A DNA stretch of 46,919 nucleotides from Vermamoeba vermiformis (lineage: Eukaryota): contig JBEWZL010000110.1 in NCBI GenBank assembly GCA_045837725.1, positions 1 through 46,919 of the forward strand, written 5' to 3'. The position numbers and the translations under genes were made by a program. Position 1 is the stretch's first letter, and each line of letters begins with the position of its first letter. The notes beneath the pieces are model-generated. The model was not told the origin of the DNA. It searched no databases and saw only the letters and a program-made list of their open reading frames with translations. Positions 293 through 23,100 of this stretch are shown in pieces.

Positions 293-2767
293 TACAAGTA
301 CACCTGATTTACACGTTCCAAAGACTCAGCGGCAACATCAGCTGAATGCGAATACGTTTGTATTGTTCTTGCCTGTAATTACAACTAGTTAGTGACATGA
401 ACTTCAAAATAAAATTGACGTACCCGATGACTTGTTGGTGTTCTTGCTGTACGTTTGTATCACTAATATAATTAATTAGTACTTATTTATGCAATAATAA
501 ACTATACTTACCAATTGTCTTAGTCTTTTTGTTTTGCGGCTCATTCTCGTCGTTCGTGTCATCGTGCTTTCGCTTCTCTGACAAAGTAGTTAGAATGGCC
601 AATAGCTGTCAAGGTAACACTTACTTGAGCATGCAACTGCATCAGCCACTTTGCTAAGCTCTGCAAGTGTTGTTAGACACGTGAGATGCGAATAGTGTAA
701 AGTAGTACTTACTAGCCTTTGATGCTGCTTTGGCAGTACTCTTGGGCTTCTTCACTACCTTTGAGGACAGTGGCGTGGGCAAGGACATGTCCTGAAGCTT
801 GCCTTTCGATGCACTGGGTGCCATTGATGACTTGGAGACAACGCTGGGCACCTGCTTTGGCGTGGCATCTGGCTTTGATGCAGTGTTGGTCTTGGATTGT
901 GGCTCGGGAGTAGCTCCCGCCTTGGTGGCGTTCTTGAGTGTAGACGAGGCCTTGGGCACTGTGGATGCCTTAGAGACAGCGCTGGGCACCTGCTTTGGCG
1001 TGGTATCAGGCTTCGATGCAGCGTTTGTCTTAGATTGTGGCTCGGGAGTAGCTCCCGCCTTGTCGGCGTTCTTAGGCGTAGGTAATCCCTTGGGTGTCTT
1101 TGACGTGTCCTCAGATGAGGTCTTGGCCTTGGGAGTAGCAATGACCTTGGCTGCAGGTGTCTTGGCGTTTGTCGAAGTTGGTTTGGCCTTGGTGCTGCTG
1201 CTTGCTAATGCCTGTTCATCATCATGAGGCTGCTCGCATTGATCTGATCCATCGGGCTCTAATTAGATTGATGAGTCAATTTAATTATACACTCGTACTT
1301 ACCTTCCTCTTGGTCTTCGTCCCCGTCATCATCGAAGACTTCTTGGACTTCAGCTTCATCTTCGTCTTCACCGAGCAGATAGTCACCATCGTCATTGACT
1401 GCCTCGGCATTGTCTTGATCAGGTTGACAAGTGTCGTTCATCTCGTCTTCATCAGATGCTATAGAGCGATTGTTGGCCTGTTCATTTCGTCCTGTATGTT
1501 GTTTAGTTAAAGGTCAATAGGTTTAATTAGTTTTGACTTACTACGGTACGCAGGTACATCGTTGGCATCATCTGGGTCAGCAATGTCTGCATTATCTGCA
1601 TTATACATTAGTTCTATTTGTTTACTAGTTAACTGTTACCTTCATCAGCTTCGAGATCACCTTGTTCCTCAGCATCGACAATGTTGTACACGAGAGTCAT
1701 CAGTTCGTTAATGCCATAAGTTCCAGCCTTTTCTGCCTCCTGTTGATTAGACGCCTCTACTAAGGTGTTAATACGAAGCATATATATACAGTTAAGCAAC
1801 TTACTCGATGCCAAGATCATTATTTCTCTCGCGTACGTAACGAAGACTTGGGGGATCTCCATCGTTGCGTCGTACTTTCCAACGTACTCCCTGCAAACAG
1901 TTTGAATAAACTGTGATGCGTCAGAGCTATAGGCTTCTTCTCTAGTGTCCTTGATGCGAAGCCTGAGCTTTGGCGTTTTGAACAACTTCGTAGCCAATTG
2001 CTTTCTGAACACCCGTCTGTGCTCGTTGAAGTCTTGCCCTAGCTGATTTATATATGTTAATAATGAAGTCGCATGTCTAATCAAGAGTATAGCTTACTAT
2101 TTGGACCAGGCCTTTTGCTTGGGGAATATCACTCGCTTGGATCCAGTCTTCTACTTTGTGTTGCTCAGTCTTGATGCTTAGGAACGGATCATTAATGAAG
2201 GCCTTCGCGATTGTAACCTTGGATATCGATTTCTGTAAGAATATAGTTAGATTTGAGCAACAACAGCAAGGACAAAAGACTTACGTGGATCTGAACGGCG
2301 TCGGACTGATCGGCAATCAGTCCTTCGATCTTCTCTAGCCTCTTTGTTGGATGGGTGTCGCCAAACACCTCTTTCATGGCTGCATCAAGGTCGCCAAGTT
2401 GCACGGCAATACGGAGGCAATTCAGCCACTGTTCATAGTCAGCTGGTAACTCGATCCTACAAAAATTGGGTTAGTATTTGACTCTGAATATTTATAATAA
2501 TTTTAAATATTACCCTTGGGCCCCTGTTGTCGTTCGCTTGGCTTGGGTTTCATTTCTGAGCAAAAGTAGAATTAAGAAAATTCAGATCGGTTTGGCAGAA
2601 AATCGGAACAGGCTTGAAAGTATTTGCTTAACCAAATAAACGGTAAATTTCGATACTATGTAAATATTGCTCATAATATTTGATGGCTAAATAAAAAAGA
2701 AAAGCAATGAAACTTACCGTTGCTGATCGGCGGGCACCTGATCTCTTGCGTTGTTGTTCGAACTCAT
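293..2767 (-). CDS. Multi-exon hypothetical protein: helical N-terminal part, acidic D/E tract, K/A/P/T/S-rich (histone H1-tail-like) C-terminal part; probably transposon-encoded
   Basis: ATG at 2767 (MSSNNNARDQVPADQQR) splices in frame through exons ~2514-2555 and ~2284-2456. Further exons match ORFs 1629-2084, 1259-1441 and 654-989. CTTAC (minus-strand GTAAG) donors are visible. The 3' end is uncertain. Confidence 0.6.
835..1073 (-). repeat. Internal direct repeat, period 138 bp (46 aa), two diverged copies
   Basis: 835-935 vs 973-1073; encodes KNA(D/T)KAGATPEPQSKTN(A/T)ASKPD(T/A)TPKQVPS twice. Confidence 0.9.
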
Positions 2768-2894
2768 TGCTGACGAAAGTAGAGGTTAATCTGAAGTACA
2801 AAATAGAGAATGGTGGTTACAAAAACAAATAAAGATTAAAAATAATCAAAACGTAACGGCAAGCGTACTTACCAAAAACTGAAGTTCGAACACA

Positions 2895-5800
2895 ATGGAC
2901 TTGATCTACAAACCAACAGCAGTTAGACATCGCGTCTTTTGTAATGTATGTCATCATGATATACCTACATTACAAAAGCAGAGCCATCGTGGTACGCGAG
3001 AGCACCTGGAGAATCTTTATGAGCTTGGTAAAATGATAGAAATATTTGCTATATTAAAAAATATTAATATTAGTGATGCATAGCGTTGAAACTTTATGAA
3101 GTATATCAGCGATATCGAAATCATGCTGATTTGGTTGAAGAAGAAATTCAAAACGTCGATCCGCAGACGGAAGTCAATGTCAACGTACCTGCTCCTCCAG
3201 AGGGTACAAATTGCAATATCAAGGGCACCATGCACGAAGGATATGAATCAGATATTCTTGAAATTGCTGGCTACTCCTGGTAAGTTAACTAGTTAGAACA
3301 CGCGTGCGTTTTAATATCATTTCCTTTTTAGGAAAATTGGTGCTGAAATGAACGACAAAGGAGCAGAGATTTACCTGGAGTATTTAATCGACGAGAATAT
3401 AAAATTCATGATGGACATTGATATTTCCGCGAAGCTACGCTCATCGGCAACCAACTACACGTTAGTCAAAGGTAGTCTTTGATGTTAAGTTTAAACTCGC
3501 ACTTACCTCTCATTAAAGATATCAAGCATATCTTGCTCCAACCAAGCAAGCGATGGGTGTCCATATACTGCACCGCCCCACTTGAGCTAGGCGACTCATT
3601 CGAGTTGGATCTGATCATCAAGCCCAACTTCTACAACAGCTATGAGCGACCACAGCAAGAAGAGAAGCCACCCAAATCACGTCGAGGTCGCCCTAAAGAG
3701 TATAGAAAGTATAAGAATTTGTCTACAACGTTGCTAAATTGTTGGTATAACAACAATCGTAACAAACCACTATCAGGTACTCGTGTCACGCGTTGAACGA
3801 ATCACTTACCAAATTATTCACAGAGCGAATGCTTCAGCAATTGATCGACATACTCAAGCACGTTGGATTCATCATTGAAGATATCCCCAAGTCCGTCTAC
3901 TTGCTGCAGAAGTGTGATGAGTTTATACTTGACAGCCTGCAGCTCTACGAGTACACGTTCAACGGAACGGCTGAAGTGATCAAATACTATCGACCAGAGG
4001 ATGTTCTTCGTTATGTCCTAAACAGCAAGTCATTAACTGAGGGTATGATGTCGTAGTACACAGCAACTAGTTACTTACGCTAGTCAGGTTGGGTTTCTCG
4101 ATCGACAGACTCTGCTGTTGTCAATCATCCGTCTGATTCCGAGGCATGGAAGCTGTGCGAAGCCCACTTCGAAACGGAGGTTGAATACAGCAATGCTCGG
4201 TTGGTGTTGCCTGTTCTATGGATCGATGGCTTCGTCGGTGAGCTCACGCGCAAGAAGACGTACTGTGCATTCAGCCTGACGTTTGCCAATTTCTCTAATG
4301 AAGTAAGTATCGATTGCTCGCATAATAACGCTGCCTACTTACCATATACAGCTGATGGCCAAGCACAAATCCCGTTTTGGTATTGCCAATCTCCCGCCGA
4401 ACTTGTACAAACGCAAGGACGAGTTCATCAGAGATGCTCTCATACCGTTCTTTAAGGACCTTGAATCAAGACGATTAGAGCCTGCTTTGATCGGTGATAC
4501 TTACGCACCAATAGTTGGAAGACTGTTCGCAATCAAAGGTGCGTGTGTCTAACTAGTATATACTCATACCTGTATCAACCAGGCGACCACATGGCAAAGA
4601 TAGAGCTTGCTGGTGTTGCTGGCACGAGAGGATATCGTGGCTCTTTCTATTCTATGACAACGAGTGACGACTTCACAAACTTAGACAAGGCTCGTAGATG
4701 GCACGTTCCTCAAGAGTGTAAGTAGTAATTGCTAAGTTAAATAATAACGTTATTATTTAAGGCTTAGATATGATTATTCGATTACAAACCTTAACCGGAT
4801 CTGAGTTCACCAAGTTCAAGAAGGCGTCAGGAGTTCGTGCTGACAAGGTATGGACCAGGAACAATTAGAACCTACTAATGAGATAATTAGAGTCCGTTTT
4901 GGGATCTGCCATACTTTGTGGAAGATTTCTATCGTAATTTTAGTTCGTGTGGCTTGCATCTGCTAGCGCTCGGAATTATCAAAAGACTAGCAAGATACAT
5001 TGGTCAAAAATTAGGCCAGATATATCGGAAAAGTAAGATCGCTTCATTAGCAAACTATTACTTACCTTAGTAGATGTCAGTGAGAACATCCATAAACTCG
5101 ATCCGCCATCAAACTTTGATAAGATCTCGATGTCAGTTCATGCAGAAGGAGGAAGTACGTAACGACTAGTTAGATAGTCGATTCTTACCTTTGTTTCCAA
5201 ATTTAGAAAAGCAAGTGTTATCTTTGTCCGGCGGCCAGTGGCGAACCTTTGCTGCAGCATCGATCATCTTCAACAAGAAGTAAGTAACGAAAACAAGAAA
5301 TAGACTTTAAAATACTTACTTAATTAAAGGTACATGAATAATCATGATTACGAAGACTGGAAATTGATCATGAACAGAATTCTTTCGATCTTTCGTGCCA
5401 CGTTCACGAAGCAGGAGCTCCAGCCTGGTGGTTCGTTAGAGACTAGTATTAAGAACGTGCAAAGCGAAGCAGGAGCTCCAGCCTGGTGGTTCGTTAGAGA
5501 CTAGTATTAAGAACGTGCAAAGAGCTATGATGGTATGTGTGGATTATATCAATATTGTACTTACTTGTGGCATTCCAAGCGCGTATTCCCAGTCGACAAA
5601 TATAATTTCAAATTTCCGAACTTTGAGGCATTGATCGCTTTGCCTCGTCAAATCCTCTTCTTGGGTCCACTGCACTTCCAATCGACTGAAAGAGAAGAAG
5701 AGATGAATCGCCGCCGTCGTCAGGTCCTTCAATCAGCGAACAGAGTAAACCCGGCTTCGCATATTACTAAAGTGGTATGACTACTGATACCCTAGAGACA

Positions 5801-6492
5801 ATAACTATTAATAAAGAGATATTAGATCGAGAAGGAACGCGCAGCTGGAATGGTTGCCTTTGAGGATGATGAAGGCGAGAGCGTGACGTTCAATGAATTG
5901 TTTAATCGATCCAAGAAGAAAACCCACGCGTAAGTGACCTACTATTGTTATTAATATTGATTTTGTATCAGTAATTATCATACGTTTGGAACTACTGGCC
6001 CCAAAACAAGAATCGGACAGCTGGATCGGCCACGCATCTTCGAACTAACAGCCAACTACTTCGATGTTGATAGGCAACATATATGCCTAAAGTACGCATA
6101 CAATATCAAAGGCTTCTATTGGAGAAACAAGAAGGTGTATCCTGGCGACGAGGAGGGGCTGACTGTTGAGGTTTGTTAGTGACTCGGATCGTGTCAATGA
6201 CTAACTTACGGATCAGTTCAATAACTCCACAGTGACGGGATTGATTGAATCCTTATTCGTAGTGAATGTAGTCACTATTGCAGGGCATCGCAGGCAAGAG
6301 AACGACCTCCTCTTGTGCGCACTTCGTCCAATCGATGTTCCGAACACGCACGACACCGTTGTAGAAGGAGAACTTCAAGACGCATCAGAAGTCGAGTTCT
6401 ACCCGTTAGGATGGGGAGGGTATGAGCTAAAGCACGTTGCACGTGTCGTCAGACCATCCAGTTCGTCAGACAAAGTGTTTGTTTGGCACTGA
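2895..6492 (+). pseudogene. Plavaka/CACTA(EnSpm)-like RNase H-fold transposase, multi-exon, frameshifted in this copy
   Basis: N-terminal C2H2-like finger FCNVCHH...SHRGTREH and AT-hook-like RRGRPK. Core motifs are VLWIDGF, GDHMAKIELAG, SPFWDLPYF...CGLHLLALGIIK and FPNFEALIALPRQILFLGPLHFQSTEREE. The 58-bp duplication at 5407-5522 creates TAG at 5502-5504. Confidence 0.75.
5407..5522 (+). repeat. Perfect 58-bp tandem duplication inside a transposase exon
   Basis: CGAAGCAGGAGCTCC...AACGTGCAAAG occurs identically at 5407-5464 and 5465-5522. Confidence 0.95.
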
Positions 6493-7467
6493 TCAGATCG
6501 TGGCAAACTGAAGCACTCGAAAATATTAATACGTATTATTAATCAACAAATATTCGTCCATTGTTAAATAAACTTACTTTTAAATATTTATAGTTTGATC
6601 CGATGGGTCTGAAGATTTACTGGAGCTTCAAAAAAAATTTAATTGCAAATCCGCCAACCAAAAATTTAAACTATTATTGATAAACGCTAACTGCATATAA
6701 TATTACCTACATATTCTAGCAAATAACTATTTTTGCAAAAATCCTCCTTGCAAAGTAGATTCGCATAATCGCTCGGGTTGAGATCCTTGGTAAAAGCTGT
6801 AGTTGCATATAATGGCAGCGTACGGCCAAATACTTGCTATTTAATATAAATACTGCGTGTACAAGTCATAGAGTCCATTCATTGTGTTGTGTTTGTGGAT
6901 GCGTACGAATTGAAATTAAAAAAAGTTTAAAGTATTGCCTCATCCAGAATTGCGCTTTATTTAGTTACACCAAAGTATTGAAGCATTGAGCAATTCGATG
7001 CCCGTCCAAATACCCTTGACGGAGCAATATTGACGGATCTGACCAGTCATGGGTCGACTAAGCCTTGGTCAATGGCCTGGCATGGGGTGCGATTAAACAG
7101 TAATAATCTAGAGTACTCTTTAAAGGTTTTGAGGGTATATAACGGAGATCCACCAACCTTAATGTACCCAACCGTACCTCACTTAAGTAGCAAAAAAATT
7201 TTACCTTATTAATACAGCAATAACTATTCACTAAGGGTAATTGATTGAGCATATTGTTTTTGGAAAATTCAAAAAAAAACTTCCTGCCATCAGATCGAGC
7301 GTCCAGAAATGTACGTTAATTATCTCAATCACTACAAATAGTCTAACTGTTGGGTAACATTTGATTGAGTTTTACCTCATCAAAAGTTTATCCTGTGACT
7401 ATTGCCACGATAACTACTATCAGACATTGCCGAACATGCTCGCGACAAGTTGACCGCTCGATCTGGA

Positions 7468-8455
7468 TCACCGATGCCATTTTGGTTGTACATAACTTGA
7501 ATCATCTGAATCACTGTCTATTAATATTGTGCTTAGTCATTGCTTTTTCAAACAGGCGTTGCCTTACCACTGTTTTCTTCGATCTGATCCATTTGCTTGG
7601 GCTTTGGTATGACCACTGGCTCTTGATAGCGGAAGTCCTTGTGTTTTGTAAAGAATGTCAACGAGAAGCGATGACCTTTGATCAACTCGGCATTGCCATG
7701 GACCAACTGCCTGCTTTTAAAAAATATCGCATCGCCAGCAGCCAGCTTGAATCGACAGCCCAACTGGTGGAATACCAAGTCCCCGCCTATTTAGTCGTTA
7801 TTAATTATCACTGAATTTGACCACCGATCTTACCAGTATAATCCCCGAACGGAATGACCAAGCAGTGGCCATCTTTGTAATCACCACTGTCAATATGAGC
7901 AGAGGCAATTCCATCGATATTAATGGCCATTACTTTGAAGACGCGCGTGATGGCATTTGGATCGCCATTGACGGCCACGTAGTCTTTATACATTTGCGGG
8001 AAATGGTTCTTCACCAGGGCATCGACAGCATCATACAAGCCAATTGTACGGAATTGAGCCAACAGAGCTTCGATGCCCGGGACGTTCTTGTCTTTTGAGT
8101 GAGCCGTGGCAACAATATTCTTGCCGCCACGAGGAGACCATGCCCCTGCATGGTACGACCAGGAGTTGATCCGACCGCGTTTGTGCTTTCGTCTTTTACG
8201 CTGCAAGAACTTCAGCAATGCCTTCCAAGCCCCTCTCCAGACCACTTCTTCGATGCCTTTTTCAATGCTCTTTACGAGAGTGCGAAATTGGGGCTCTTGT
8301 TCTCCTGGCCGTAGCAGTTGTTTGTCACCCGAAAACACGGTGAAGTTGTCGACAGGCTTCGCTTGGAGCTCTTCGGCCAGATCTTTGCCCTTTTTGCCCA
8401 TCGGAAAGGGCTTTGGTGGGCTTCTGATTGTTCTAATGGACCAGCGACGGCGCAT
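7468..8455 (-). CDS. TET/JBP family 2-oxoglutarate/Fe(II) nucleic-acid base dioxygenase
   Basis: Removing intron 7787-7833 gives YHAGAW...AINIDGIASAHIDSGDYKDGHCLVIPFGDYTGGDLVFHQLGCRFKLAAGDAIFFKSRQLVHGNAELIKGHRFSLTFF. This has HxD, the distal H and the 2OG-binding R in TET/JBP spacing, plus a basic NLS-like RKRRKHKR. A probable last intron at 7506-7567 leads to a stop at 7468. Upstream exons near 8600 are possible. Confidence 0.85.
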
Positions 8456-9490
8456 CTACTTTATTGATAATAAAATTAATTAATCAAAGAAAATTACGGC
8501 AAAAATAATATTATTAATGGCATTTTAACATTATCAAGCTAATCATCCTTTTATTTAATATTAAAAAAATTGGTTTTGGCTTCGAGTTGAAACTTACGCA
8601 GTAATAACCGGCAAGAACTGTGATGGCTTAATATCCGCTATAATTAAAAAACACGACCAGTACTTGCGAAGTTCCACAAATGGTCTGATCGCTGAACACG
8701 AAAAATTAAACTATGCTAAATGGCTTAGGACTCAATTAGTAGCCTCCCAAGCGTTGGTGTTCGTGCAATGAATTTTTCTGGTTCGTCGTGGAAGAGCAGC
8801 CAGACCGAAATTGGAAACGCACACTTGTCGTGTGTTCTTCGATCAATTCCTGTACAAATCATTTTTAAAACAAACGCAGAAGAATGAAGTCAACACTGGC
8901 GTCCAAATCACCCAATAATATCTACTATGAATATATCAATAACGAGCTTGAATATGGCCTGGACTGATATAGAAGCGCCGTGTCAAGGTACTAAATGTCC
9001 CCGTGCTCTATTATTTAACTTGAATTTTAAAACCATTTTAACTGCTTTAGTATGAATTTATAATGTAAGAGGTCTTGATAGAGCGCATAATTATTTTTTT
9101 CTGTTATTTCCAAAGCTCGATCTACGATAACAACCATTTCCCACCATTTTCGCGGTTAGAAATTAAAATATCAAACGTAAAATATCTTTATTTGAATAAC
9201 AAATATTAGTCAAATTACCCCAAACTCTAATCAACTTTACCAATTCGTTGTTTCTGTGATCCCAAATCTCGCGAGGTTGACCAAGACAAACCTTGTTTCG
9301 CCAAATAAGCCGCTCTACGCGATAAAATAATGCACAATTTATCAATATTTGTCATTTTTATGCTTAAATAATTCGTACAAAGCCTTCAATACTATCGTCG
9401 TTCCGATCTTCCCCTCGATCAGCCGCCAAGCTCGCGTATTGCCAAAACCTAACATTAATAATCGCCATATATCGCTCTTAAGGCACAATT

Positions 9491-9781
9491 ATGCATAATA
9501 CTGGCGTCCAATTTCCGATTATTTTTTCCTTGCCTTGTACGTTGCGCGAGGCAAGAACGAATTATTTTCTGCAGGATCAGAAACTACGGCAGCAAAAGAA
9601 GGAACGAAATAAGGAGGTGCAAGCAGATTTCACTTACGGCGAAAATGACAGTCCTAAAGATCCTTCGTCAATATCCTGTGGTTGCAACACGATGCGCTGT
9701 CGTTGTATAAAAGGAGCAAAGGGTTGCACTGACGGATGCCGCTGTACTGGATGCAGCATTTTATGGGCTATCGCGAAGTAA
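9491..9781 (+). CDS. Small protein/exon with Tesmin/TSO1-like CXC cysteine cluster
   Basis: CGCNTMRCRCIKGAKGCTDGCRCTGC, preceded by a basic KLRQQKKER. An acceptor TTTTCTGCAG ends at 9573, so the true start is uncertain. Confidence 0.55.
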   Translation: MHNTGVQFPIIFSLPCTLREARTNYFLQDQKLRQQKKERNKEVQADFTYGENDSPKDPSSISCGCNTMRCRCIKGAKGCTDGCRCTGCSILWAIAK

Positions 9782-9789
9782 CGGAGAAA

Positions 9790-12340
9790 TAGCGCGGATC
9801 CCTTGGGGGCACGAGTGGACGCCCAAGAGCCGAGATCGCGACCAAGGACTGGGTATCAAGTAAATTTTGTTTATTATGAAAGACAGTGCCAGGTACGTAC
9901 GAGGAAAAATACTAGAAAAATTCAATAACGCATTGTATCATAGAAAACGTCGCGTAGATCCGTCAGATCAGAATGACGGATCTTAGAAGAATTATAGAAA
10001 ATCAACCAGCTGGAGGTAATATTAGGTACGTGTTAATTATGGTTTTTAAGGAAAATTATTATTCGATTACGTTCGAGGTCAGATTCGAACGCTGAGCAAT
10101 TATTAAATCCGCGAGATTAACGAGATTCTCGTTACTCGCGTTCTATTGGTAATTAACAGTACTAATTTAATTTAGCACCACAGGTTTGATTTTAACAAGA
10201 ACGTCAACGGAACGAGCAGGTAAGTTTAGTTTTAACGAGGAGATCGACCAAAACGATCAATTAAGTCTTTATTTATCGATTATTAGATAGGACAGTTACG
10301 CGCCACGACACCAAAGTCGTTACAGCGCGGGTTATTTCGAGTTGTCAAAATCGCACGCGTCATCCGAAAGCGGTTTTTAAAAAGAGAACTTAGACAGATC
10401 GACCACACGGGTCGAGTTATTTATTTGAAGCGATTTAATTGATCATTTACAGCATATAGTAACGCGCCACGGCATCAAAGCCGCTCCAGCGCGAGTTATT
10501 TCGAATTCACTGCTGAAATGATAACGCGCGTTATTTCCCTCATCAACTCAACAGATCGACCACAAGGGTCGTTATAATTATTTATTATAGAGTATTAACA
10601 AATGATAGTTACGCGCCACGGTCGCAACGGCCGTTCAGCGCGAGTTATTTGGATGAGAAACCGATGCGAACTTAGATTCGCATCAGATCGACCACAAGGG
10701 TCGATTTATCGCTATTATGGGAGATAATATTGATTGTCAACACGCGCCAAACGACTTTCAGCGTCGTTCCAGTGCGGGTTTAAGATCGCGAACAAAACGC
10801 GATCAAATCTCGGCACAGAGACCGAGATAAATCAAGGTAAGATTTTTCTATATACTTCCATTTATAATATTAATCTATCGTAAATTCAATATTTAAATTT
10901 TCAAGTAAAAATTAATTTTTAAGATCCGGATCGAGCTTAGTGCTCGTACTTTATCCATATTTTTAATTAATAACGATTAGACGATACTAAATACAATATT
11001 ATAACACTTCAATTTTTATTTAGATTGTATTAATATAAATACAGATCGAGAGGGTTCAACGCGACCCTTTGACGAAGTTAACCGGATCAGATCCAACATC
11101 TCGAACCGTCAAAGTTTCAATATAGAGCATCGTTGCTCTAAAAGTAAGTAAAACCCGTTATTTACTTCTGTTATAACTCAGTTATGTCATTTTTAGAGCT
11201 ATTATTACAGTTATTAGTGCGATCAATCGTTGACACGATCTTGTCCGCTGCAGCGGTGCGAGCTGTAAGTTAATGCCGTATTAGTGACTTATATAACTTA
11301 TTTTTTATTATTATAGGTGACAATCAATTAAGAGCCGGATTGACCGGCAAATCAAGATCAGCGCCGTCATTATTTAAGATTTCACGAGATCTCGGGACCA
11401 CAACTGGTCAAATATTGATGAATTATTCATTTATTTTCAACGTTATGTCCCCATGATATTCACCGGGGTTGCAGCGCGTGACCAGATCGTTGGATCGTGA
11501 CATCTCAGCGTTACGGTCATCAAATTGAAAGGTAAGTTATTTTGATATTATAAATTGGTACTATAATAATAAGAAATTGTAAATTTTAAATTTTGTATCC
11601 GTGTTAACGTTAAAAACAATTTCTTTATTTAGATCGAGCTTCGCGCTCGAATAAAATTTAACTAGCCATTCATTTAATAATTTAAATATTATGCTAATCG
11701 TATTTTGATAGCTTATTTCCGAACCCTTGAGCCCGAGTAACACGATCGAGAAGTACGTTAAATTTTACTTGGCGGAGTAGTAAGTAAATTACCTTAGATA
11801 TCATATTTAATAATTATAATAATCTCTTTTTATTGGTTAGCTGGCCTGACGCGTTAATCTAAGACTTAGAGCGATCTTGGATCGCGAATAAAAGTACAGA
11901 TGCGTAATTCTAAAGGTAAGTATATTTAATTCTATGTAATACTTAGAACGTACTAACGGGTATTAATACAGAACAATTAGCGAGCAGGAATGGACAAGAG
12001 GCGCGATCTGACTGCGCTAATTTATTGGTACGAACAAAGTGCGGTTTATAGTAAGTCAATTTTGTATAGCCGTATTAACTCGTTGACATCGGTAGAGTTA
12101 TTGCGTAATTGAGTTTATCGCAGATCCCCGCGGGCCCGTTGATCCCCAATTTCGGCAATTAATGCGCGCATCGATCGCGCTAAAAGTACGAAGTCAAGTC
12201 GTTATAAAATTATATTTATTACGTTCTGACATTGTTTATTTATTAGTACAAGGGTCTGGAGAAAAAATTAGCAAATTCGGTGACGGGATCTAGCGCGTTA
12301 TTAACCGCTGCTTCAACGAAGATAATAAGCCTAGGTACGA
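9790..12340 (+). ncRNA. Candidate spliced, highly structured long non-coding RNA (or very long spliced 3' UTR of the CXC gene)
   Basis: No credible ORF. Plus-strand GTAAGT donors at 10220, 11144, 11265, 11532, 11780, 11916 and 12051; five of these (11144, 11265, 11780, 11916, 12051) open AT-rich 45-61 nt segments ending in YAG. The intervening GC-rich segments contain many stem-loops. Putative exon 11841-11915 has stops in all three frames. Confidence 0.5.
10241..10780 (+). repeat. Four-unit array (~130-165 nt period) of conserved hairpin A, variable AT-rich spacer and conserved bulged hairpin B
   Basis: Hairpin A begins AGATCGACCA at 10241, 10396, 10553 and 10685. Hairpin B is CGCGCCA...CAG(C/T)GCG(G/A)GTT with CGCGC at 10299, 10463, 10612 and 10743. 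Confidence 0.9.
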
Positions 12341-12895
12341 ATTTTTTTCAATCCGTGAAGGAGGTGAGGATGAAAATCAAAACCGTGCACAACTAAAAGA
12401 TATTCGTAAGTGTCTAACTCGTCATACATACACAACTGCTGGAAAAATTGACCTGATACCGGATACCGGAAAAAACACTTCTTGGAGTAGCAATAAATAA
12501 ACTAGCGTATACGCTGCAAACAACAATAGTAACGTGGTTGTTTTTTTTGTTACACATTAAACAGATGTCAATTGTCATTCAAAACGTGCTTATTAGGTGT
12601 AATCGCGACGTGGTCGAGATTCTACGCGAGATATTTTATCGTTATATATATAAACCACGACTTATTACAGGTTTTTTTTCAGACTCAAAAACGATGTTGC
12701 ACACTTGAAGGGAATGAAGTATCTTGTCATGTCACCCATTAACTAAGTTTTATTCAATTATCCGTCCTGAAATATTTGTACGTTAGTTAAGAATAAACAA
12801 ACACGTAGGTTCTTTCAAGTACATGATCGTCAATTACTTACAAGACTGGTCACGTTTCATAGATCGAATTTCAGAATCAGCCGAAGGGTAGCCAA

Positions 12896-15792
12896 ATGAA
12901 TTCACTTTATTTGGTCGCAATATTCCTGTCGTTAGTTGCAGTAACAAATTGCCAATTACGTAAGACTGACAATTCGACCGCAACATATTTTTTTCTTTTT
13001 TTTTTTTTGTAAAACAATTCTAACTAGTTAATCCTATTGTATATTTCTAGAATTAGTCGCATCATATCAAGTATCTGGGAGTGCAATAGTAGCACGCAAG
13101 CTACGAATCGAAAGCTATGGACCTGCTCAAAATTTGTCTAACTGTGCTGCCGGGATTGATTCCTATGGCAAGATTCTGTCAGGCTTATTCATTTTTAGTG
13201 AAGGAATAATCAATCCTTCAAATTTACCCAATGCTCCATCGACTGAACCGGTATTTTCTGATGTGGATGTTGTTGACGGTACTACCGAATGTAATATTGT
13301 TAGCCTGAATGTAAGCAATGATAATACTTAATTATTTAGCAACTAAATGCTCGTAGAGTACCTGGTATGAAATCTCAGGACCAATCTTGAAATCGATACC
13401 GGTTTCAAATGCTGCCTATATTAGCGTATCTAGTTTGGCTGCAGGCCCTTTAGCTCTCGTGATTAATCAGACCGGATATATAGCACCTCTGGAGAAACAG
13501 TTTAGTTTCGAGGTTGAAAGCAGACGACTGACAGGTAGGGAACTTAAATTTAGTACCATAAGATACTTATGTGAATTAAATTAATACCTTGACATTGTTT
13601 GATGTATTTACTCTTACTACTCAGTAAAATATAACTAATATTATGATTTAACAGCGGACACTCTTATATTCGCGGCTGCTACGCCGAATGCTACCATTTC
13701 CATTGGAAATCTTACTAGTTCAGGGCAATATAATACTATCTTCGAGACTTCAGGATCAAAAGCTTCATCGATCTCAATAGCAGTACACTCCCCCGATAAA
13801 TGGGTGGTCTGTTATATAGAGTAAGTAGATTACCTTTGAATGCTTTTCGATCACTCATATTTTATTTCAGAATTCCGTGCTGAATTGCGTGTTCAGTAAT
13901 GATACAACGCAGTTTGTAAGCCTTGGAACTCAACCTACCATATACTCCGTCGCAATATCATACATTGACTGCAATCACCTATCGGTGTTGACTAGCGAAG
14001 ACTCGCGCTATACAGTAGCAATTTATGATGTAGTAACTAGAAGTCTAGTAGATACTTATCATGGCTCTGCAATGTCGATTAATGGCTTGCACCAATCTGC
14101 AACAGTCGATATGATATCAGTTATGGTGTCGAATTCGACGGGTGTTTATCTGGACATTTTAAACTGGAATCGCAATTCATCTGCTTGTACGGCAGTTGAA
14201 CCACTTAGTCCTCCTGTTGTTACCCCAACCTACTCTCCAGTTACCTCTCCAGAGTCTATTCAACCAACCACTTCACCAACCACAAACAATACTAACCTTG
14301 GCGATGCACCATCAATTTCTCCTGTAAATGCAGTTGCAGTTGGAGTAGGTGTCTCGATTCCTGTGGCAGTTGCTGGGGTGGCTATCTTCTTGCTCGTGTT
14401 CTTCTTGCGCAAACGAACAAAGAACAACAAGAAGGAAACGAATGCTGCACAGACCCAAATGAACCCTGTCACTGATCTTGACGACCCCTCAACTTCTCAA
14501 GCAAACACAAACGTCGTGAACACGACCAATTCATCGGAAATGCATCACAACAACCTTCCTGTCTCAAATGCCAATAAGGTGTACACGTCGATGGGGTTGT
14601 CGACTGTCGATAGTAACGACGACAGCTTCATAGTGGCATCAGCGGTGGATCACCTTCCAGACATTGACAAGCGACTTCACATCCCATACAAGAGTCTCAT
14701 GTTCGTAAAAGAGATTGGTGCCGGTAGTTTTGGCAAAGTGTATTCAGGGTGAGTTTGACGATTAATTTGGTCCGGAATATGCTTACTAACTCTCATAGTG
14801 AATGGCGTGGAGCAAAGGTGGCAATCAAAGTGAATAATCAGATTACTGATGTCGATGGATTCTTGGCCGAAGCAAAACTAACTCTGTACAAAAGCAACGA
14901 TTAGACATATGGCCATTGATTCTAACGATCTTTTACTCTAGCGGCATTGCACCACATCCAAACCTTGTTCAAACTTTCGGAGTGAGTCTTGATGGACCCA
15001 ATCCATGCATTGTTCTGGAGTATTGTGGCGGTGGTAGCTTAGATCAACTCTTATTTGATATTGACCAGCCAGTGCCAGTTGAGAAACAACGCGAGTTTGC
15101 GATTAAGATCGCATACGGTCTTCTCCATCTTCACAATAACAACATTGTGCATCGTGATCTTGCTGCAAGAAACATTCTAGTGAGTTTTGACACTTACGAT
15201 ACCTATTTGCTAACAAGTGACTTTAGTTGACGAATGATCGACAACCGAAGATTAGTGACTTTGGAATGTCTAGATTGTTGCAAGAAGAGAACTCGAAAGG
15301 TCAAACTAAAACAAACTTTGGACCAATCAGATGGATGGTACGATGATACATTAATTTTTATTGCACACTGTTAACAAGCACATGCTTTTCGATAGGCACC
15401 AGAGAGTCTAAAAGATCGATCATACAGTATTAAATCGGACGTTTGGACATTCGGTATTACTGGTAATCCGTTCGCTAAAATCATTTCAAATGTAACTTAC
15501 TAACACACTTCAAAAAAGTGAACGAGATCATTTCACGACAAGAGCCACATACAAACGAAGATCAACTCACAATTGCTGCTCGCATTCGAGATTATGCGGT
15601 CACTCCAGATATTCCTGAAAACGCGGATCCAGTGCTTGTTGAAGTAATCAATCTATGTCTGAAGGCCAATCCGAATGAACGACCGGTAAGTCTAGAGTGA
15701 ATATTATTACTGTTAAATTAATTTCTCTGTCGTAGACAATGGAAGATGTTTGCATTCTGCTGCGATCAAAGATAGACACTAATGAGAATTGA
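12896..15792 (+). CDS. Single-pass receptor protein kinase, tyrosine-kinase-type (TK/TKL) catalytic domain
   Basis: Signal peptide MNSLYLVAIFLSLVAVTNC, then an ectodomain, a P/T/S stalk and TM AVAVGVGVSIPVAVAGVAIFLLVFFL-RKR. Kinase motifs across short introns: GAGSFG, VAIK, HRDLAARN, DFG, PIRWMAPE, SDVWTFG. Confidence 0.9.
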
Positions 15793-20145: not shown

Positions 20146-23100
20146 TTATGCGCGCGTTGCTATCCAATACAACGCGTTTGTTTTGCTATTTCCGTTGTCC
20201 CAGCCATTGAGTGTATTGATGTTGGTCCATGCAGTCGCCTTATCCAACACAGCTTGGGCCATGTAGATAAAGCCACGCCAGCCGACTTGAATCGTTGGAC
20301 TAGCGCGTGTGAGAGCAGTGGACAAGGTTGGATAAACCGTGCTAACCCAAGCGCTGTTCATATATTCTTCCGTGATGGGCGTGAAAGGCATCATTTGAAT
20401 GCCAATGATGTACTCGATGTTGGCTCCGAACCAAGTAGCAAAGTCAACCTTCGTGCCCCAAACAATACCAACACAACCGTTGTCAGCAAATACTTGATCG
20501 TAGACGTCATTAGACTTGTTGTCCATGTGCCAGTACTTCTTAGTCGAGCGGATTTCTTGTGCGAGCATCAAGCGACCAAGATCGCGCAAGTTGGCGTTGT
20601 TGGACACAAGACCCCAGAGGTACATGCCATAGTAGCCATTGATAGATTCTGACGACGACTCTTGGTTCTTCACGTCACCAAACTCGAACAGACCTGAGGC
20701 CCATGAGTGACCGGCGTACCAGTCCTTCATACGCGTGACTGGGAAGTAACTATCATGCACTGGATTGGCATAGGCACGCACAAGATCGTTGATGGCAGGT
20801 GCCCAAGTCGTCGCCCAAGCACTGTCACCCTTGGCCACCACTGCTGAGGCATACACAAAGTAGCCAAAGTGGAAGTGAACGTCGTTGTAGTAACCAAGTC
20901 CATAATCGGCACCACTGTCTTTAATGCCGTTCGATGAAGTGACACCACCCCACGTGCGATCGTAAATGATTTTGTCTGAAGTTTGACCGTTAAACCAATT
21001 CTGCAGCAAAGTCTTCAAACGATTGCGAATGTTTGACGCAATCGTTGTCTCGCCAATTTCATCGGCAATAAGCGCCAAGCGTGCAACAGCAGCCAAGTTC
21101 TTGCCGCTGGTGTATGTGTCACTAGCTGTTTGAGTCATCGACTGGTCTGCTTGAAGCGCCGTGCGAATGGACTCAACGTACTGCGTTGGAATACTTCTCG
21201 GGGCACCCCATGTTATTGTGGTAAGTTGCTCGGTCATTTTCCAGCTCAGGCCTACAAGTCCAGACATCTTGCCCTTCATCGTGACATAGGCATTTGTCAT
21301 CACGTATGTAACGCCAGTCATCATGTCGCGGTGATGAGGAAGTGTCATCATCAATGGTGCAGAGCCATCTTCAGTGATGTAGTCGAATTGAAGGACAGCA
21401 CTATCACCCGTCGCGGTCCAGCCGACCTTAGATGCAATGGGCACGCTGTTCTTGTACTGGTCTAATGTAGTTTCGAATGAAGAGTCCGTCAAACAGACAC
21501 CACGCAGAACTCCAGAGTAAGTGCTCGTGGCCGTGAGCGTTGATCCAGACCAAGTGAAAGTGATTGAATTACTAGCGTAGAGAATCCAAGTCTGGCCATT
21601 GTTGAGTGCAATCTTAAACTTGGTACCAGTGACCGTCGAGCTAGTCGCACCGTTGATTGAAAGAATGGCGTGCACGGTAGTTATAACAGGAGTAAGTCCG
21701 TCCCATTTAGTAGTGATGTATGGACTGCCTTGAACCAAAGGAGCAATCATAGAGTTGGCACGAGTGCCGTAGTTGATGGTGTTCGCATCATAAGTAGTGG
21801 GTGGATTGTTCGACCAAATCAGTGTGACTGACAGTAAGTCCCAGTCCAAAACCCGTCGCTGGGCAATTGTTTCTTTCACCAACATAGCAAAGTTTTCGGT
21901 GAAGACTGTATTGCCATTGGTAGCAGTGAAACTGCGAGCGGAATAACTGACTTGAACACCAGTGTTACGCACTTCAACAATATACGGACTGGTGACAATA
22001 GGCATGTTGCCTTGATTGAGCCACATGTTCGTGTGCCATGAATTAGTCGGATACGGCATCGGGATTGGGCCGAGCAAACTCGCAGGTGGAGTGAGTGGGT
22101 GATTCATGAGAAACGGGTAGAACGGCGCCGAAGTTGTGATCGCATTGCCAACACTACGACGTGAAGTCGTGACAGACACAGGAGCAGAAACTGGCACAGA
22201 AACAGGTGTGGCAACAGGGACTGACACGGGTGTGGCAACAGGTGCTGCAACGGGCGCTTTCACTGGTGGAGACACAGGCGCTGCAACGGGTGCTTTCACT
22301 GGTGGAGACACAGGCGCCGCAACGGGCGTGGCGACAGGTGCCGTAATGGGAGGTGACACAGGGGTGGAAACAGGAACAGATACAGGGGTTGCTACTGGTG
22401 CTGTAACCGGTGGTGAAGTAGGCGTTGAGACAGGAGTCGCTACAGGCTCGGAGATGGGTGTTGACGTAGGCACGTTCACAGTGGTGCTCGAGATTTCAAA
22501 CATCCACTTGCCTGCTACATTGACGTTTGAATCTAGTTCGAGAGTAGAGCCCACGAGTGATGTGCCGCTGCTGGGCAGTTCATAAGCCATGCTTGTGACA
22601 CCGGCCGAATTTGCATTGAAGCCTGCACGAGCATATAGACCGTGAACTTGAGTGGTACCAATATCTGCATAGAGCTGTTAGTTACGTGGCATCATTGACT
22701 GTTAGGCTACGTACGATTGTAGAATAAGATGGCAAAGCTCTGTTGACCATCAGTAGCAAGCACAATTTGAAAAGTGTTCAAGTTGTCGCTGAAACGCTTA
22801 TATTTAGCGACTTTAAACCAAGTGGCAATGACTGCACTGGTAGCGGAGAAATCGAGCCCCGACAAATCAAAATTCTCTTTCACATCGTCACTGATGTTGA
22901 ACAGCGTGTCTTCATCTGAAACCACGCGGTAGTAAATGGAATTAGCGCCGTTGGGCAGAGTCTGACGGTTGTCTACACGCAATCAATCAGCAACACAATA
23001 GCAACAATAGAAATGAGCAACGTACCATAATCAAGCCACAAAGGAGCAATGAAGGTGACATTTTCAATAGGAAATGCACGCGGATCCAATTGGCTGAACG

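Follow-up and report, generated by a model that had tools for sequence, protein, structure and literature searches.

In the Xist A-repeat and in NORAD, short GC-rich hairpin modules lie in tandem within a spliced non-coding RNA, with A/U-rich linkers between them. In the roX/MSL2 system of Drosophila, a stem-loop non-coding RNA stands beside a protein with CXC-type cysteine spacing. Messenger RNAs (mRNAs) with introns in the 3' untranslated region (3' UTR) are targets of nonsense-mediated decay (NMD). Finally, DNA transposons that carry TET/JBP genes are described in fungi in the searched text of one article (Kojima 2025, PMC12730594); that text has no occurrences of "non-coding," "hairpin," or "CxC." Here we describe a locus from Vermamoeba vermiformis that is partly like each of these systems. 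It lies in a 46,919-nt stretch of contig JBEWZL010000110.1 (the window), which is eukaryotic DNA with introns of about 45 to 100 nt. From about 9.8 to 12.5 kb, the plus strand of the window is spliced at many short introns and does not encode a protein under the standard code. With moderate confidence, we read this region either as the untranslated tail of the transcript of a 96-codon cysteine-rich open reading frame (ORF) or as a long non-coding RNA (lncRNA) that starts just behind this ORF; the RNA would act in cis, beside a TET/JBP-like gene. The spliced non-coding transcript is well documented. The chief value of the stretch is as a correction to gene models.

The splice junctions come from run X8, which is labeled as a different but related organism and whose status as RNA was guessed; its contigs are 90% to >99% alike to the window. 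Four joints in these contigs are exact and are flanked by GT..AG. The first (9890 to 9942, with the cut shifted by +2) gives a 51-nt intron at 9893-9943 (GTACGT..TAG). The others give a 52-nt intron at 11265-11316 (joint from 11264 to 11317), a 61-nt intron at 11780-11840 (11779 to 11841), and a 56-nt intron at 11916-11971 (GTAAGT..ACTAAC..CAG; 11913 to 11970, again with the cut shifted by +2). A fifth joint, from 12185 to 12273, begins with GT but has replaced letters. We assigned it to a 61-nt intron at about 12186-12246 (GTACGA..TAG), and 18 diverged letters match the start of the next exon. The initial annotation of this DNA had proposed five plus-strand introns, and three of them (11265-11316, 11780-11840, and 11916-11971) match the X8 joints exactly. 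The other two, at 11144-11196 (53 nt, GTAAGT..TAG) and 12051-12095 (45 nt), were modelled from their splice signals. For a 67-nt intron at 10220-10286 (GTAAGT..TAG), we have the signals and an indirect indication, which is that 10285 is where one X8 contig starts, along with 4 letters that could not be placed. Two more introns were placed by the model: 10837-11044 (208 nt, GTAAGA..CAG, 21% GC), across which the X8 depth is 0, and 11532-11632 (101 nt, GTAAGT..TAG). Instead of the latter intron, an X8 contig skips 11524-11704 (181 nt), with AT..TT ends; possible explanations are a segment deleted from the relative's copy and an unusual mode of processing.

Overall, the spliced model contains 10 introns of 45-208 nt (median 58.5 nt, 18-38% GC), and GTAAGT is the donor sequence of 7 of them. 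Its 11 exon segments have 35-50% GC. The probable last exon, as read from the sequence, is at 12247-12510 on the plus strand, with AATAAA at 12493-12498 and an inferred 3' end. Within 9790-12340, GTAAGT occurs seven times on the plus strand (at 10220, 11144, 11265, 11532, 11780, 11916, and 12051) and never on the minus strand, while dinucleotide shuffles average 0.82 occurrences and, in 1000 of them, never exceed 5. The X8 junctions show that a plus-strand transcript was spliced, regardless of whether X8 is RNA or contains spliced retrocopies. A plus-strand transcript with multiple introns, as originally proposed, is borne out by the X8 joints and by the restriction of GTAAGT to one strand.

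We read the spliced region as non-coding. From 9782 to about 12510, stop codons crowd all six frames. Past the stop codon of the Cys-rich ORF, the spliced model is 1974 nt long, and its three frames contain 29, 46, and 31 stops. No continuous ORF arises under the splicing seen in X8: every frame is closed on all three of the X8-supported spliced paths. The 75-nt plus-strand exon at 11841-11915 had been noted as closed in all three frames, and we counted 2, 3, and 2 stops in it. The plus-strand exon at 11317-11531, which includes a hairpin at 11334-11348, is likewise closed in all frames (5, 3, and 2 stops), and most of it (11317-11523) is contiguous in an X8 contig.

The main rival to a non-coding origin is a decayed accessory gene of a mobile element: a gene that was once coding and intron-rich, like its neighbours, and that gained stops and frameshifts and kept its splice sites, and whose hairpins are incidental. 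The spacing of the introns is like that of the neighbouring plus-strand gene that bears ORFs. Also, just one TAA parts the Cys-rich ORF from 37 further open codons, which reach as far as the donor at 9893. There are two open runs that span splice junctions (94 codons at 10734-11328 and 89 codons at 12021-12393), but we estimate from the stop counts that runs of about 90 codons would each be expected about 0.6-0.75 times by chance. There is also a diverged X8 copy of 11317-11427: once its indels and substitutions are applied, all 37 codons are open, and the frame continues the upstream run. However, if the exons had been coding, a stop count that tolerates frameshifts should be below that of shuffled sequences, and it is not (17 versus 14.5±2.4, P = 0.90). 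A Pfam match at E ≤ 1 was found for 0 of the 10 longest ORF pieces. The repeat units described below are spaced by 164, 149, 157, and 132 nt, which are mostly not multiples of 3. Gene decay would also leave unexplained a seven-fold excess of GC-rich hairpins and a CpG observed/expected ratio of 1.95. We consider this origin unlikely.

The core of the hairpin-rich part is the plus-strand exon at 10287-10836. This 550-nt exon has a fold z score of -6.86, and 0 of 100 shuffles are as stable; an X8 contig covers 10285-10511 unspliced. The exon comprises four degenerate units of about 130-165 nt (approximately 10283-10446, 10447-10595, 10596-10727, and 10728-10840), whose alignment has a mean column identity of 63%. 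Tandem Repeats Finder reported 3 trivial rows and missed this diverged array. In every unit, a conserved outer stem (CGCGC..GCGCG) encloses a variable inner stem and is followed by a hairpin specific to the unit; the hairpin CGACC-ACAAG-GGTCG ends three of the four units. Matches to the repeat motif numbered 3 and 3, versus 0 expected. The inner stem varies between units yet stays paired (CGAC/GTCG, CGGC/GCCG, CGGTCG/CGGCCG, and ACGAC/GTCGT), and two of its pairs are G-U only if read on the plus strand. This pairing across units is the sole hint that a structure may be conserved. In the first hairpin of the repeat, the helices lie in different registers in different units, and there is no column-consistent alignment. 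A comparison of G-U with A-C mismatches, as an indicator of which strand is structured, had 4 mismatches in all, and none was informative.

Like the Xist A-repeat and NORAD units, this is a spliced, non-coding array of short GC-rich hairpin modules with A/U-rich linkers. However, the stretch has no sequence or Rfam relation to those RNAs and just four diverged units, and the likeness is in kind only. Across the whole window, Rfam had 0 matches at gathering thresholds; within 9000-13000 there were just 3 matches (E = 2.3-7.1), which scored 19-20 bits where the cut-offs are 37-80. No tRNA genes were found either. When we scanned metagenomes for a conserved 19-nt word from the hairpins, it occurred at 17 loci (51-69% GC) without BLAST similarity to the window, and we rejected these as chance matches.

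Beyond the repeat exon, we scanned for perfect hairpins with stems of at least 6 bp and loops of 3-10 nt. There are 21 in 9790-12340, as compared to 6.7±2.5 in shuffles of the whole region (maximum of 15 in 300 shuffles). If exons and introns were shuffled separately, the expectation was 9.3±3.2, and for shuffles within 60-nt blocks it was 9.0±3.0; 0 of 500 shuffles reached 21 by either approach. The excess is larger for hairpins with GC-rich stems: 11 versus 1.5±1.3 in local shuffles (0 of 500). By kilobase, 10001-11000 has 13 hairpins and 11001-12000 has 7, while the other kilobases of the window have at most 7 and most have 0-3. Between about 9900 and 11700, the fold z score of sliding 150-nt segments is for the most part below 0, with a minimum of -4.6; it is near 0 from 11700 to 12340. 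When the exon pieces were folded individually, the first seven of the 11 (9944-11779) had a mean z of about -1.3 and the last four (11841-12397) of about -0.4; nine introns had a mean z of about 0. The earlier proposal that hairpins are denser here than in shuffled controls is supported, although the structural excess is confined to about 9950-11700, and "hairpin-packed" describes the 5' two-thirds of the region. Of the three outcomes that had been named as refuting that proposal (no junctions or expression, a continuous ORF, or hairpins no denser than in shuffles), none came about.

The six individual stem-loops in that proposal are all where they were said to be, and five of them also appear in the scan for perfect stems. 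These are the plus-strand hairpin at 9956-9983, with a stem of 9-10 bp; the two plus-strand hairpins of 10070-10140, which are at 10070-10091 and, nested, at 10110-10140 (the scan lists the inner stem, 10118-10134); 11123-11140; and 11634-11650. The sixth, at 11334-11348, has a 5-bp stem, which is below the 6-bp cut-off. The plus-strand exon at 11045-11143 has hairpins at both ends, including 11123-11140, and a fold z score of -2.11. The plus-strand exon at 11633-11779 starts with the hairpin 11634-11650, as judged from the stem scan, folding, and the spliced model.

Just upstream of the spliced region, on the plus strand, is the CXC-like Cys-rich ORF (9491-9781, with codons to 9778 and the TAA at 9779-9781). 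The first intron, at 9893-9943, which has an X8 joint, is 112 nt past this stop codon. This is beyond the approximately 50 nt used to recognize an mRNA with a 3'-UTR intron, and nine more introns are modelled downstream. Provided that one RNA carries both the ORF and these introns and that the ORF is translated, the spliced form should be sensitive to NMD. The locus differs from known NMD-target mRNAs in that its untranslated sequence of about 2.7 kb has ten introns, which is far above the usual number, and the linkage of the ORF to the introns is putative.

We propose that the RNA acts in cis on itself. The consensus introns past the stop codon would commit the transcript to processing by the spliceosome and to exon-junction surveillance, with either of two outcomes. 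The output of the small ORF might be throttled via NMD, or else the RNA might be marked as properly processed, in which case the efficient consensus introns would serve to pass RNA surveillance. The hairpins of the repeat exon would be a structured module that binds protein or resists degradation. Splicing status affects the small-RNA surveillance of transposon RNA, according to portions of three articles (PMC6004069, PMC5851062, and PMC6232588).

The initial annotation had instead drawn an analogy to MSL2 and roX. In that model, a structured lncRNA and the CXC protein, perhaps together with the dioxygenase, cooperate in trans as a scaffold for chromatin or anti-silencing factors. The ORF directly upstream does have CxC spacing (CxC-x4-CxC-x6-C-x3-CxC-x2-C), and the tandem hairpin modules are like the repeat modules of known scaffold lncRNAs. 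The ORF is also weakly similar to TCR (12.7-14.9 bits) and to MSL2-CXC (13.6 bits), with E values of 0.03-0.16, and a neighbouring Protein Atlas cluster with MSL2-CXC scored 0.86, which we treat as a lead only. However, all of these CXC matches are under the curated cut-offs (23.5 bits for TCR and 26.7 bits for MSL2-CXC), and a search of the ORF against Pfam gave no match at E ≤ 0.1. The ORF has no RING or other domain. It is also an orphan: no homologues were found by a word search or by phmmer against 1.84 billion representative proteins, and its nearest Protein Atlas clusters are hypothetical proteins from Rotifera (0.89; again a lead only). The roX-box motif (GUUNUACG) matches four times in the window and 0 times in 9790-12340, and 88 of 100 shuffles have at least four matches. 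Also unlike roX and MSL2, the locus has no dosage-compensation context. The analogy does not survive the lack of a roX-box-like motif in the region, the low CXC scores, and the lack of homologues. A trans-acting chromatin scaffold is not likely, and the roX-like model in particular is very improbable.

Several observations weigh against our own reading of the region as a spliced, structured, cis-acting RNA linked to the Cys-rich ORF. First, the RNA status of X8 was guessed, and spliced DNA retrocopies would look identical. Second, the Cys-rich ORF and the RNA are not connected by any X8 piece: the closest one begins at 9818, which is 37 nt past the stop codon, and the depth over the ORF is about 0. 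Third, two RNA-seq runs that carry the source species label (X22 and X24; about 13 million records were read from each) yielded just 9 and 4 reads. None of these reads was at least 99% alike to the window, and 12 of the 13 lay partly on the stretch. They match two short motifs, at about 10395-10420 and 11056-11088, that are flanked by unlike sequence, and they stem from other, diverged copies rather than from this locus; the 33-nt stretch at 11056-11088, in particular, recurs with other flanks in these RNA reads. As there were no near-exact reads, this copy is either silent in the source of X22 and X24 or absent from that strain. Fourth, when RNAalifold was run on the four repeat units, 0 of 10 pairs had changed on both sides. 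Fifth, among the X8 and X4 variants in or beside hairpins, two break stem pairs (9978 G>A, in the hairpin at 9956-9983, and 11394), one adds a pair to that same hairpin (9984 T>A), one is in a loop (10526), and none forms a compensatory pair. Sixth, the two strands fold with about the same stability.

Because both strands fold alike, DNA palindromes account equally well for the hairpins. The region might be a DNA-level element, in which short CpG-dense palindromes and tandem repeats act as duplex or cruciform DNA, and transcription and splicing are secondary. Such an element might be an epigenetic control region or a CpG island that the adjacent TET/JBP enzyme keeps clear, or it could be a set of protein-binding repeats of a mobile element. 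Our analysis newly found a CpG-rich domain of about 4 kb (approximately 8800-13000, on neither strand in particular) that includes the divergent promoter between the TET/JBP-like gene and the Cys-rich ORF, the ORF itself, and the whole non-coding region. In 400-nt windows, the CpG observed/expected ratio is 1.4-2.3 within this domain and 0.8-1.1 on both sides of it. The ratio of 1.95 for the non-coding region compares to 1.07-1.11 in the rest of the window, while GpC is unchanged. CGCG reaches 14 per kb at its peak, versus a median of about 2. The domain begins at the divergent promoter and is shared with the TET/JBP-like gene, and the searched text on transposon-borne TET/JBP genes proposes that they counter silencing by methylation (PMC12730594). 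However, the stem sequences differ from hairpin to hairpin, so there is no single recurring site for a sequence-specific protein. Furthermore, the rest of the presumed element is not depleted in CpG (1.07), so simple protection from methylation-driven decay does not explain a ratio above 1.

The strand-specific motifs and the splice signals also count against a DNA-level element, as they point to selection on RNA. Besides GTAAGT, these motifs, which are newly found as well, include GTTATTT (7 plus-strand and 0 minus-strand copies) and AGATCGA (6 and 0). The plus strand is depleted in TG (0.55) and CT (0.56) while their complements are not (CA 0.90, AG 1.00). Overall, we judge it quite unlikely that the region acts primarily as DNA. 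We also considered whether repeat-induced point mutation (RIP) could have caused this composition. The region's TpA/ApT of 0.97 and (CpA+TpG)/(ApC+GpT) of 0.79 pass the usual RIP thresholds, but RIP does not predict an asymmetric depletion of TG and CT. AGATCGA is often located directly at an acceptor (YAG|ATCGA), which suggests, from the sequence, that the region may have grown by duplicating modules of an exon plus an intron.

On the other side of the Cys-rich ORF is the TET/JBP-like dioxygenase (7551-8455, minus strand). Its two exons, 7551-7790 and 7811-8455, match Pfam's Tet_JBP with E = 4.3e-4 and 0.011; both matches are below the 34.9-bit cut-off. Among 5.8 billion protein clusters, the TET exon has one homologue, at 96% identity. 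The first exon of this gene probably starts at about 9355, pointing away from the Cys-rich ORF. The gene and the ORF are head-to-head, with about 135 nt between them.

As in the transposons in the searched text of PMC12730594, a TET/JBP-like gene stands beside a possible EnSpm/tnp2-like ORF, and there are signs of repetition in related genomes. The difference is that here the transposase match is weak, and neither termini nor target-site duplications are established. The host may also lie outside the fungi, for which the Rotifera clusters nearest to the ORF are a lead only. Specifically, plus-strand ORF pieces at 3476-7200 include a weak match to Transposase_21 (E = 0.1); this piece has no homologues among longer proteins, and the other ORF pieces have no match. 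We did not find terminal inverted repeats: the best pair, between 2000-3500 and 12300-13000, has 15 of 18 matching positions and is not convincing. There is no second copy within the window. Given the weak transposase match and the lack of terminal inverted repeats, the claim that the region is carried by a transposon is not supported. Unitig depth is raised over 10089-10596, and X4 contains short shared pieces with different flanks, which indicates that the region is repeated in related genomes. We infer that the stretch belongs to a repeated, probably mobile, sequence family.

A more ambitious interpretation is that a mobile element has, in this locus, a self-contained cassette against silencing. 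It would combine the TET/JBP gene, the intron-dense RNA that is rich in CpG and hairpins, and a small CXC zinc-cluster protein; either the RNA or the palindromic DNA would serve as a tether for the enzyme or would protect the element against silencing by small RNAs or methylation. We regard this combination as very improbable. More generally, if the hairpin-repeat exon and the dense introns are functional, then this would be a rare case of a TET/JBP locus, linked to a mobile element, with its own structured non-coding RNA. It would offer an entry to how TET/JBP elements handle RNA surveillance and defences that are based on DNA modification.

Within the last exon, a 39-nt piece at 12339-12377 contains AAGGAGGTGAGG followed by ATG and resembles a bacterial ribosome-binding site. 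This piece recurs in an X4 DNA contig with unrelated flanks, where it is followed by a longer, acidic ORF; the ORF in the window stops after 8 codons.

Downstream, at 12897-15700 on the plus strand, is a separate receptor-type gene with a start that resembles a signal peptide, a Ser/Thr/Pro-rich stretch, a hydrophobic span, and a kinase domain (PK_Tyr_Ser-Thr, E = 6.5e-21). The depletion of ATG and TG prompted us to consider whether the spliced region might be a long 5' leader of this gene, whose ATG is at 12897. This is disfavoured because of the AATAAA at 12493-12498, a TATA-like run at about 12648, and the lack of any joint that reaches the kinase gene.

The 3500-6600 interval has ten minus-strand matches to GTAAGT (for instance, near 4303-4342 and 5280-5319), which are ACTTAC on the plus strand. 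ACTTAC is branch-point-like and precedes, by about 10-15 nt, the acceptors of introns on the plus strand, some of which read GTAAGT...ACTTAC. An antisense spliced RNA over this interval was therefore ruled out: the minus-strand GTAAGT is the reverse complement of ACTTAC near the 3' ends of plus-strand introns. Farther away, the minus strand encodes a low-complexity ORF at 657-1262, which is rich in Lys, Pro, Thr, and Ser and in which a block of about 45 residues is duplicated. At 20146-22677, also on the minus strand, is an intronless ORF of 843 codons. It contains the two domains of a GH81 glucanase (E = 1e-96 and 1e-38), and its N-terminal part matches NIDO weakly (E = 1.2e-4).

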